From the NCBI GenBank assembly GCA_038245295.1, contig JBBRSP010000010.1, forward strand, positions 151,102 through 215,101: a stretch of DNA of 64,000 nucleotides, read 5' to 3'. Made by a program: the position numbers and the translations under genes. This DNA is from Candidatus Binatia bacterium. GTDB taxonomy: Bacteria; Desulfobacterota; Binatia; HRBIN30. Shown here piece after piece: positions 42,970 through 62,134 of this stretch (position 1 is the first letter of the stretch; the number at the start of each line of letters is the position of its first letter). The notes below the pieces were generated by a model. That model saw only the letters and a program-made list of their open reading frames with translations, was not told the origin of the DNA and did no database searches.

Positions 42970-43673
42970 TGAGGATTGCCGCACGCCAACCAGGTCACGC
43001 CCAGCTGGCTCCCCTCTCGCAAATCGGGAGGACACGCCGGTGGTGGCAGAAGACCAGGGGACCGAGTGTTTTCTACGCCCTCGTTTTGACCCTCGCCGGC
43101 TGCGGCTATCACCTCACCGGCAGCAAGATCGGTCTGCCGGCAGAGATCCATTCCATCCGCGTCGGCGACATCGAGAACCGCACTCCCGAATATGGGCTCG
43201 AGAAGCGACTGCGCTTCGCCCTGGAGCGCGAGATTCATCAGCGCCAGCAGCTGAGGCTAGGTGATTCCGACAGCGGCGCCGACGCCGTCCTCAGCGGCCG
43301 CATCCGTAGCGCCATCATGCGTCCGGTCGCCTTCAACAGCTCCGATCAGGCGACGCAATACAATGTCCTCATCGTGCTCGATCTGAGCCTCAAGCGTGAG
43401 CGCGACGGCGCCATCCTCTGGAAGGGGAACGGCATCCGTCAGGAGGCCGAGTACAGCACCGCCGCCGGCGTCGTCCTGGTGAGCTCGTCGCAGTTCCAGC
43501 AGGGCACCCTCGACCCAGCCAATCTGAACAATCCGCAGTTGAGCCCCGGCGCGGCTGGCAATCCCCAGGCGCCGAGCCTGCAGCTTGGTGAGTCCGATCG
43601 CGAACGCGCCCTCGCCCGCTTGCTCGAGCAAAGCGCGCGTGACGTCTACGACCAGATGATCGAAGACTTCTAA
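42969..43673 (+). CDS. lptE: LPS assembly lipoprotein LptE family
   Basis: LAGCGYHL lipobox; directly follows leuS; exact start uncertain. Confidence 0.8.
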   Translation: MRIAARQPGHAQLAPLSQIGRTRRWWQKTRGPSVFYALVLTLAGCGYHLTGSKIGLPAEIHSIRVGDIENRTPEYGLEKRLRFALEREIHQRQQLRLGDSDSGADAVLSGRIRSAIMRPVAFNSSDQATQYNVLIVLDLSLKRERDGAILWKGNGIRQEAEYSTAAGVVLVSSSQFQQGTLDPANLNNPQLSPGAAGNPQAPSLQLGESDRERALARLLEQSARDVYDQMIEDF

Positions 43674-43707
43674 AACAAAAAACGGGCTCTGCTTGCACAG
43701 AGCCCGT
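43672..43707 (-). terminator. Rho-independent terminator for rpsT (between convergent genes)
   Basis: Stem ACGGGCTCTG/CAGAGCCCGT preceded by an A-tract, which is a U-tract on the minus strand. Confidence 0.8.
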
Positions 43708-43739
43708 GGAGATTAACGTCGAAATTTCGGGTAGTTCGC

Positions 43740-44015
43740 TTACGAAGCAGCCTTGAGCTGGTCGACCTGAGTGGTCAGACGGGAAACCCGGCGCGAGGCG
43801 CTGTTGCGATGGATGACGCCTTTGCTGGCCGCCTTGGTGATCGTCTTGATCACCGTCGGCAGCATCTCGGCAGCCTTGGCGGTATTCTTCTCTTCGAGGG
43901 TGCGGCGCAGCTCACGGATCGTGTGACGCAGGTGCGTGCGGATGGATTGGTTACGCGCCGCTCGCTTTACAGACTGCGTATGACGCTTGATTGCTGACTT
44001 GTGTCGCTGTGCCAC
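43740..44015 (-). CDS. rpsT: 30S ribosomal protein S20
   Basis: HKSAIKR..Q..KR..RN, KAASKGVIHRNSASRRVSRL; GGAGGA RBS. Confidence 0.96.
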   Translation of the reverse strand: MAQRHKSAIKRHTQSVKRAARNQSIRTHLRHTIRELRRTLEEKNTAKAAEMLPTVIKTITKAASKGVIHRNSASRRVSRLTTQVDQLKAAS

Positions 44016-44048
44016 TAGAGTTCCTCCTAGACAATTACCGAGCGGCGG

Positions 44049-44077
44049 TTGCTAGCGCCCAGTCTAGGGGGAGTCAA
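44049..44077 (-). promoter_or_regulatory. Putative rpsT promoter
   Basis: TTGACT, 17 bp, TAGCAA on the minus strand. Confidence 0.5.
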
Positions 44078-44086
44078 CAGTAATCC

Positions 44087-44233
44087 CGTCGTCCCCGCCG
44101 GGGCTGGAGCCTGACCCAGCCCGCGGTCGACGGATCATCCTCAATCCCAGGCGGATGGCGGCGGCGTGAGGGCCATCTCTCACGCCGAGCGCTCCGGACG
44201 GGAGCCACGCCGACTTCGTTCGCGGGGACGACG
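44087..44233. ncRNA. Candidate structured RNA of unknown family
   Basis: 12-bp closing stem, several internal hairpins, two loops complementary to adjacent central segments; no known riboswitch consensus recognised. Confidence 0.4.
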
Positions 44234-44244
44234 ACGCCCCGTCC

Positions 44245-44272
44245 TTGTCGCCGCGCCGATGCTTGCTAGACT
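44245..44272 (+). promoter_or_regulatory. Putative ettA promoter
   Basis: TTGTCG, 16 bp (ending TGC), TAGACT. Confidence 0.4.
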
Positions 44273-44322
44273 CCCGCCTCCCCTCGCACCCCGAGGGTGT
44301 CTCGGAAAGGACAATTCGTTTC

Positions 44323-46002
<1,680 letters not shown>

Positions 46003-61876: not shown

Positions 61877-61958
61877 CGTCATACCGGCGAAAGCCGGTAT
61901 CCCCCCCGCCATTTTCGGCCTTCCACTCGAGGAGATCCCGGCTTTCGCCGGGATGACG
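61877..61958. repeat. REP-like doublet (CGTCATACCGGCGAAAGCCGGTATC / GATCCCGGCTTTCGCCGGGATGACG)
   Basis: Two GC-rich hairpin arms in inverted orientation. Confidence 0.8.
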
Positions 61959-62134
61959 TTCCTCCACTTTGGTTTTACGACAGTCTCTTTCGCCGGGATG
62001 ACGTTCCTCCACTTTGGTTTTACGACAGTCTCTTTCGCCGGGATGACGTTCCTCCACTTTGTTTTACGACAGTTTCTTTCGCCGGGATGACGTTCCTCCA
62101 CTTTGTTTTACGACAGTCCTTCGCCGGGACGACG
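61942..62134. repeat. Tandem array of a 45/44-bp unit, about 4.3 copies
   Basis: CTTTCGCCGGGATGACGTTCCTCCACTTTGGTTTTACGACAGTCT starting at 61942, 61987, 62032, 62076, plus a partial copy near 62119. Confidence 0.92.

Follow-up and report, generated by a model that had tools for sequence, protein, structure and literature searches.

The 147 bases between rpsT and ettA in a Candidatus Binatia bacterium fold into an elaborate structure, which raises the question of whether this stretch is a new RNA or something else. Positions below are those of the window, the whole 64,000-nucleotide stretch of DNA that was analysed. An earlier note had proposed an unannotated ncRNA, ribozyme, switch or structured mobile element; the last of these is favoured by the results presented here, and ncRNA, ribozyme and switch are unsupported. 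The rpsT-ettA element is very probably a decayed, nested REP doublet, that is, ordinary repeat debris and not a new RNA. The features of the locus are listed in Table 1.

Table 1 Features of the rpsT-ettA locus, in window positions.
Feature	Position	Strand	Basis
rpsT (ribosomal protein S20), left neighbour	43740..44015	-	TIGR00029, 80 bits (cut-off 33)
Predicted rpsT promoter: -35 TTGACT 44077-44072, 17-nt spacer, -10 TAGCAA 44054-44049	44049..44077	-	Read from sequence
Left arm of 12-bp outer stem	44087..44098	+	Sequence; origin inferred
REP hairpin B remnant, GGAG foot deleted, loop altered	44099..44123	+	Alignments; history inferred
REPIN spacer	44124..44161	+	Alignments and sequence
REP hairpin A, foot mutated from GGAG to GAAG	44162..44221	-	Motif census, sequence
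33-nt insert in REP A loop	44173..44205	-	Comparison with other copies
Right arm of outer stem	44222..44233	-	Matrix score against CGTC/Ssn-type hairpins
Predicted ettA promoter: -35 TTGTCG 44245-44250, extended -10 TGcTAGACT 44264-44272	44245..44272	+	Read from sequence, prediction only
ettA, right neighbour	44323..46002	+	TIGR03719 and NF008775 above cut-off

The pairings first described for the element are all present. A perfect 12-bp outer stem (44087-44098/44222-44233) encloses hairpins at 44101-44122, 44162-44187 and 44191-44205. GTCG pairs with a CGAC arm at 44211-44214, a second CACGCCG lies at 44206-44212, and both loop complements that had been read as potential pseudoknots, GCCTG/CAGGC (PK1) and GCCATC/GATGGC (PK2), are found in the sequence. 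Folding is stronger than chance, with z-scores of -3.54 on the plus strand and -3.15 on the minus strand for a 150-base region against 200 shuffles. The core (44099-44221) without its outer stem scores only -1.72/-1.06, so most of the folding excess comes from the outer 12-bp stem. The view that no known riboswitch is involved held for the element, which has no Rfam match at gathering score; six weak Rfam matches in 43650-44400 all fall short of the respective cut-off, and one tRNA is the sole Rfam match at gathering score in the window. The element thus resembles Rfam riboswitches, ribozymes and sRNAs in its multi-stem fold with possible loop pairings, but differs from them in that Rfam match, covariation, and positional or strand conservation are all lacking.

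Such a fold might also arise from chance pairing in GC-rich DNA or from an assembly artefact, given that the element has a GC content of 73% and that in two DNA runs from a single study the contigs break within it, at 44183-44212. However, the break coincides with an insert that is multi-copy in the genome, the overlapping contigs from both runs (one of which may be the source) show 0 differences to the element, and a folding z of about -3.5 argues against chance. This explanation is largely refuted, and we give it next to no probability. In the RNA run examined (share 0.05), only a diverged rpsT piece of a relative was recovered, without this organism.

The element had been placed between the -35 boxes of rpsT and ettA. 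Manual reading of the boxes supports this position, and by eye a box pair of like kind is seen upstream of rpsT in many relatives, but a strict sigma-70 promoter scan returned 0 sites. Lying upstream of the two predicted -35 boxes, the element would be outside both predicted leaders. An intrinsic terminator that looks bidirectional, reported by the scan on the minus strand, is located at 43674-43707, between a lipoprotein gene and rpsT.

Within the window the element is present once, as its motif has 3 matches where 2.55 are expected, and to that extent it does stand outside the window's repeat families, but across the genome it belongs to a repeat family of its own. A BLAST search of its own genome with the element returned further copies at E values of 1e-21 to 4e-15, and a profile made from 15 other copies, from which the rpsT-ettA copy was left out, matches the latter at E 8.9e-9. 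Positions 44116-44221 are identical to the copy on contig C42 at 95 of 106 bases, gaps aside. The 30 rows of the profile search correspond to 27 places once three reverse-strand duplicates are dropped. The copy-number check therefore speaks against a lone novel ncRNA, and a unique ncRNA is ruled out by membership of a family dispersed over at least 27 places. Among the 15 other copies, nine have a stronger folding z than the rpsT-ettA copy.

A motif census of the genome resolved two related family units, A (GGAG-T-CGGCGTG-CCCT-CACGCCG) and B (GGAG-T-CGGGCTG-CCCY-CAGCCCG). Both have a 7-bp stem and a 4-nt loop, within the 20-50 nt size of REP hairpins, and a foot of four bases, as in REPs, is conserved 5' of the hairpin across the family; this foot is GGAG and not the canonical GT[AG]G. 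Most units form inverted doublets, separated by a spacer that varies and is often self-complementary. After two of 18 matches were dropped as false, 16 inverted doublets remain in the genome, the rpsT-ettA copy included, and this is the doublet layout of REPINs. Gene context was scored at the 26 of 27 places that lie on contigs long enough for a gene model. With a simple codon model all 26 copies are intergenic, in 8 convergent, 6 divergent and 12 tandem gaps, and the tandem-gap copies are sense to transcription in four cases and antisense in eight. This intergenic scatter in all gene orientations is a REP-like distribution, unlike that of a cis-acting RNA. Since the layout is that of a REPIN but the foot is non-canonical and no cognate REP-associated tyrosine transposase (RAYT) was found in the genome, the family is filed as a REPIN variant.

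At rpsT-ettA the doublet has lost one foot, and the other is mutated. The altered loop of REP B, which is the source of GCCTG, has the appearance of a stub left by deletion of a 33-nt insert, with three added bases. Of the hairpin found in the family's spacers, this copy has the left arm (44130-44144), together with CAGGC, a motif also present in 4 of the 15 other copies; the right arm is mostly deleted, and GATGGC is located at the deletion junction. The hairpin at 44162-44187 in REP A is a perfect 9-bp one here because of three substitutions, whereas the family's pairing is wobbled. The loop of A holds a 33-nt insert whose site and direction are those of related inserts in other A and B copies. 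Inserts are present or absent at this one loop position: a regex search returned 43 empty and 15 filled loops, of which 33 and 10 were judged genuine by eye. The insert motif is also found free in the genome, outside REP loops, and in 51 other genomes of the order it gave single matches in three, none inside a REP loop. The hairpin GCTCC/GGAGC of the earlier note simply is this insert, and its second CACGCCG simply is the true right arm of A. The insert was also considered as a repeat belonging to GIY-YIG genes; this was rejected, as other repeats flank the short GIY-YIG loci at the three of six matches that were inspected.

The pseudoknot partners GCCTG and GATGGC are found in none of the 15 other copies, and the covariation check on the proposed structure was negative: on a 7-copy alignment of paralogues, covariation does not exceed that of shuffles, since the observed score is reached in 399 of 500. 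Pairing of the PK1 cells in this alignment is 44%; around hairpin B the copies align poorly, and the figures for that helix mean little. When the linkers were shuffled 20,000 times, a complement of PK1 type (5 nt or more) arose in 12.9% of cases and one of PK2 type (6 nt or more) in 4.7%, with both jointly in 0.6%, or 2.0% in either order. The two complements together are therefore a modest excess and not pure chance.

This excess bears on a second explanation, in which the repeat copy was recruited as a structured RNA or as a folding DNA switch, with the outer stem and pseudoknots under selection. Selection on an RNA could account for the joint shuffle probability of 0.6-2%, and all visible copy-specific changes add pairing: the outer stem, the perfect 9-bp hairpin, GCCTG and GATGGC are four such changes, each of which creates a pairing. 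However, by the geometry rules of H-type pseudoknots, the 1-nt loop of PK2 would have to cross a 6-bp helix, and as one nucleotide would have to span six pairs, PK2 cannot form alongside the full 9-bp stem. Moreover, the spacer arm holds a local partner of GATGGC that is inherited. In proteobacteria, inverted repeats are reportedly made perfect by template switching (PMC5941160), which would explain copy-specific pairing without selection. For a decayed REP doublet, deletions and hairpin-perfecting changes of the kind produced by template switching may have given rise to the copy-specific pairings, both pseudoknot-like complements among them. The strong fold would then be incidental, a consequence of nested palindromes that act as DNA, upstream of the two predicted promoters.

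Recruitment can also be assessed from the position of the element in relatives. None of the other genomes compared has the rpsT-ettA junction, as might suit a recruited copy. An empty allele of the locus, which would speak for mobility, was not seen. In 23 of 29 relatives murJ adjoins rpsT divergently, and ettA does so in none of the 29. A profile search of the 29 rpsT loci and of 10 ettA loci in relatives found no copy of the element. BLAST with the element in 40 relatives gave six weak matches that look coding or unrelated on inspection, and its B-plus-spacer core was found in none of 300 other genomes of the phylum. Together with the location upstream of both predicted promoters, the pairings private to this copy and the lack of covariation, these results argue against recruitment, which we regard as very unlikely. 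Its most specific form, a REPIN fused with two Ssn-repeat heads and domesticated at the new rpsT-ettA junction as a young regulatory RNA, with four independent changes leading to a closed double-pseudoknot RNA or DNA fold, is likewise most improbable; if true, nested selfish repeats would here be seen giving rise to a regulatory RNA. The murJ gene of this genome is on another contig, behind octamer repeats. A repeat-mediated rearrangement from murJ to ettA was considered and is unsupported, with no copy seen by eye in the 600 bases upstream of murJ.

REPINs are expected to have a RAYT partner. The hairpin motif was found in 7 of 250 other genomes of the class, all from two families (reversed control, 0), as two exact stretches in the genome collection, and in at least 128 metagenome stretches; viral contigs gave one motif locus, without a RAYT relative. 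A custom Y1 profile run over the motif loci returned five matches. Four are a 154-residue RAYT beside a sister hairpin, GGAG-A-CGGCCTG-CCCT-CAGGCCG, whose stem CGGCCTG differs from those of A and B; the fifth match, to another kind of Y1 gene, has a single hairpin copy upstream. Inverted sister hairpins lie on both sides of the RAYT at L163, L219 (the same sequence as L163) and L201, and on one side only at the truncated L235. The L201 RAYT passes NF047646 (84.1 bits, cut-off 80), and the named relatives of its protein are from Verrucomicrobia. Related RAYTs in the order of this genome have GGAG- or GGGAG-footed hairpins with other stems. The clade comprises L163, L201, L219, L235, L252, L283, L284 and L288, with GGAG-footed flanking hairpins of differing stems, and is represented both in Verrucomicrobia-like contigs and in the genome's order.

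Searches with PF01797, NF047646 and the L201 protein found no RAYT of the L201 clade in this 96.6%-complete genome, and none flanked by A or B across the genome, its family and its order. Among 35 Y1 loci from the genome and five relatives, none is flanked by the repeat, and one has a single copy about 260 bp upstream. Because no RAYT of this clade was found in the genome, the link to the enzyme is drawn through the sister sequence. The REPIN-like doublet was likely once spread as single-stranded DNA by a RAYT and is predicted to be immobile now; the enzyme would have come from the GGAG clade and would since have been lost from the genome, or be missing from the assembly. The one RAYT of this genome above the NF047646 cut-off (G000:C51:10760-11197, L259), which PF01797 misses, is flanked by GTAG-type REP doublets.

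No other copy of the family has the 12-bp outer stem, which raises the question of its origin. Likeness of its arms to CGTC/Ssn repeats was suspected before it was scored, and the matrix test is post hoc. The left arm resembles the CGTC-tagged Ssn/NTS-type head of the genome, with one mismatch in 12 to one variant; this likeness is limited to its 12 bases, the 17-base score being -1.4. Read on the minus strand, the right arm and the adjoining five bases resemble a CGTC/Ssn-type hairpin in its 5' half and loop. With 15.5 bits they rank within the best 488 positions out of 13.3 million, and 393 of these 488 continue as members of the CGTC/Ssn family. Both outer arms correspond to 5' halves only and not to a complete CGTC-tagged hairpin. 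The REP doublet probably sits between two CGTC/Ssn-type heads. It may have come to lie between two such heads in inverted orientation, generating the 12-bp stem, probably via five bases common to the REP end and the loop of the CGTC/Ssn-type repeat.

The genome contains 92-93 full hairpins and about 400 heads of the CGTC/NTS type, with copies in the window at about 61934-62134 (C10:213035-213235). A short GIY-YIG (Ssn-like) gene at G000:C22:5122-5912 is flanked by CGTC/NTS repeat clusters, and two near-identical short GIY-YIG genes (G000:C12:172419-172634 and C43:25299-25514) are flanked by a different inverted repeat family. The genome matches the NTS/SRM repeats and Ssn GIY-YIG nucleases in the portion of PMC11893778 consulted in that its CGTC hairpins are alike and flank a GIY-YIG gene, and the outer arms read as the 5' half of an NTS-type hairpin; the arms differ in being half-hairpins only, with one mismatch to the local family and no complete Ssn site.

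The family might instead be MITE-like or an Ssn(GIY-YIG)-linked repeat, moved or amplified by an enzyme other than a RAYT. The missing cognate RAYT, the further palindrome that several copies share, and an outer stem resembling Ssn-type repeats in a genome with a nuclease gene of that kind would all suit this origin. However, no common target duplication is evident by eye in the flanks of the copies, A and B hairpins also occur singly and tail-to-tail as REPs do, and RAYT genes are bracketed by sister hairpins. We consider a movement of this kind scarcely probable, and retain a RAYT-spread REP doublet as the preferred origin.

Several known systems can be set beside this doublet. It shares with REPs and REPINs (BIMEs) and their RAYTs, in the portions of PMC3116915 (Bertels & Rainey 2011), PMC6006769 (Quentin et al. 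2018) and PMC8266576 consulted, short extragenic hairpins with a conserved four-base foot, inverted doublets with a variable spacer, many dispersed copies that decay into singlets, and RAYT genes flanked by hairpins, here sister ones. Unlike those systems, the family has a GGAG foot instead of GT[AG]G and two different hairpins per doublet, no cognate RAYT was found in its genome, and both feet of the rpsT-ettA copy are lost or mutated. A foot of GGAG type has a precedent, a GGAGTG-footed REP of Chloroflexus with a different stem being listed in the supplement of PMC6006769, and among the 61 occurrences of GGAG in supplement 2 of that paper none equals A or B. We found no description of this repeat family in the literature, but it may be included in figures or further supplements of the REP papers. 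Like the GTAG- and CGTC-tagged repeats of Di Nocera et al. 2013, in the part of PMC3733652 compared here, the family forms head-to-head dimers 20-100 bp apart; REP dimers of some families there are regularly inserted within other palindromes, as is our family at rpsT-ettA. The tag differs from those of that study, which has 24 GTAG families.

Three repeat systems appear to be joined in 147 bases: a RAYT-type doublet, a 33-nt loop insert and Ssn-type heads. The element itself is minor, and it calls for caution in that nested REPs can mimic pseudoknotted ncRNAs. Whether the foot guides the choice of cleavage site could be examined in the RAYT clade whose REPs have GGAG feet.

Nesting is also seen elsewhere in this genome. 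An outer palindrome, GCTTTGC...AATT, holds GTAG-type or GGAG-type doublets and is thus a host repeat common to two REP systems; copies lie at G000:C2:33048, C5:25858, C10:38918 and C56:2465, and at C42:14164, C5:109560 and C2:110909. At G000:C5:107386-107960, some 480 bases with an ORF lie between an A unit and a filled B unit, both of which have the outer palindrome; the enclosed stretch is possible cargo or a later insertion.
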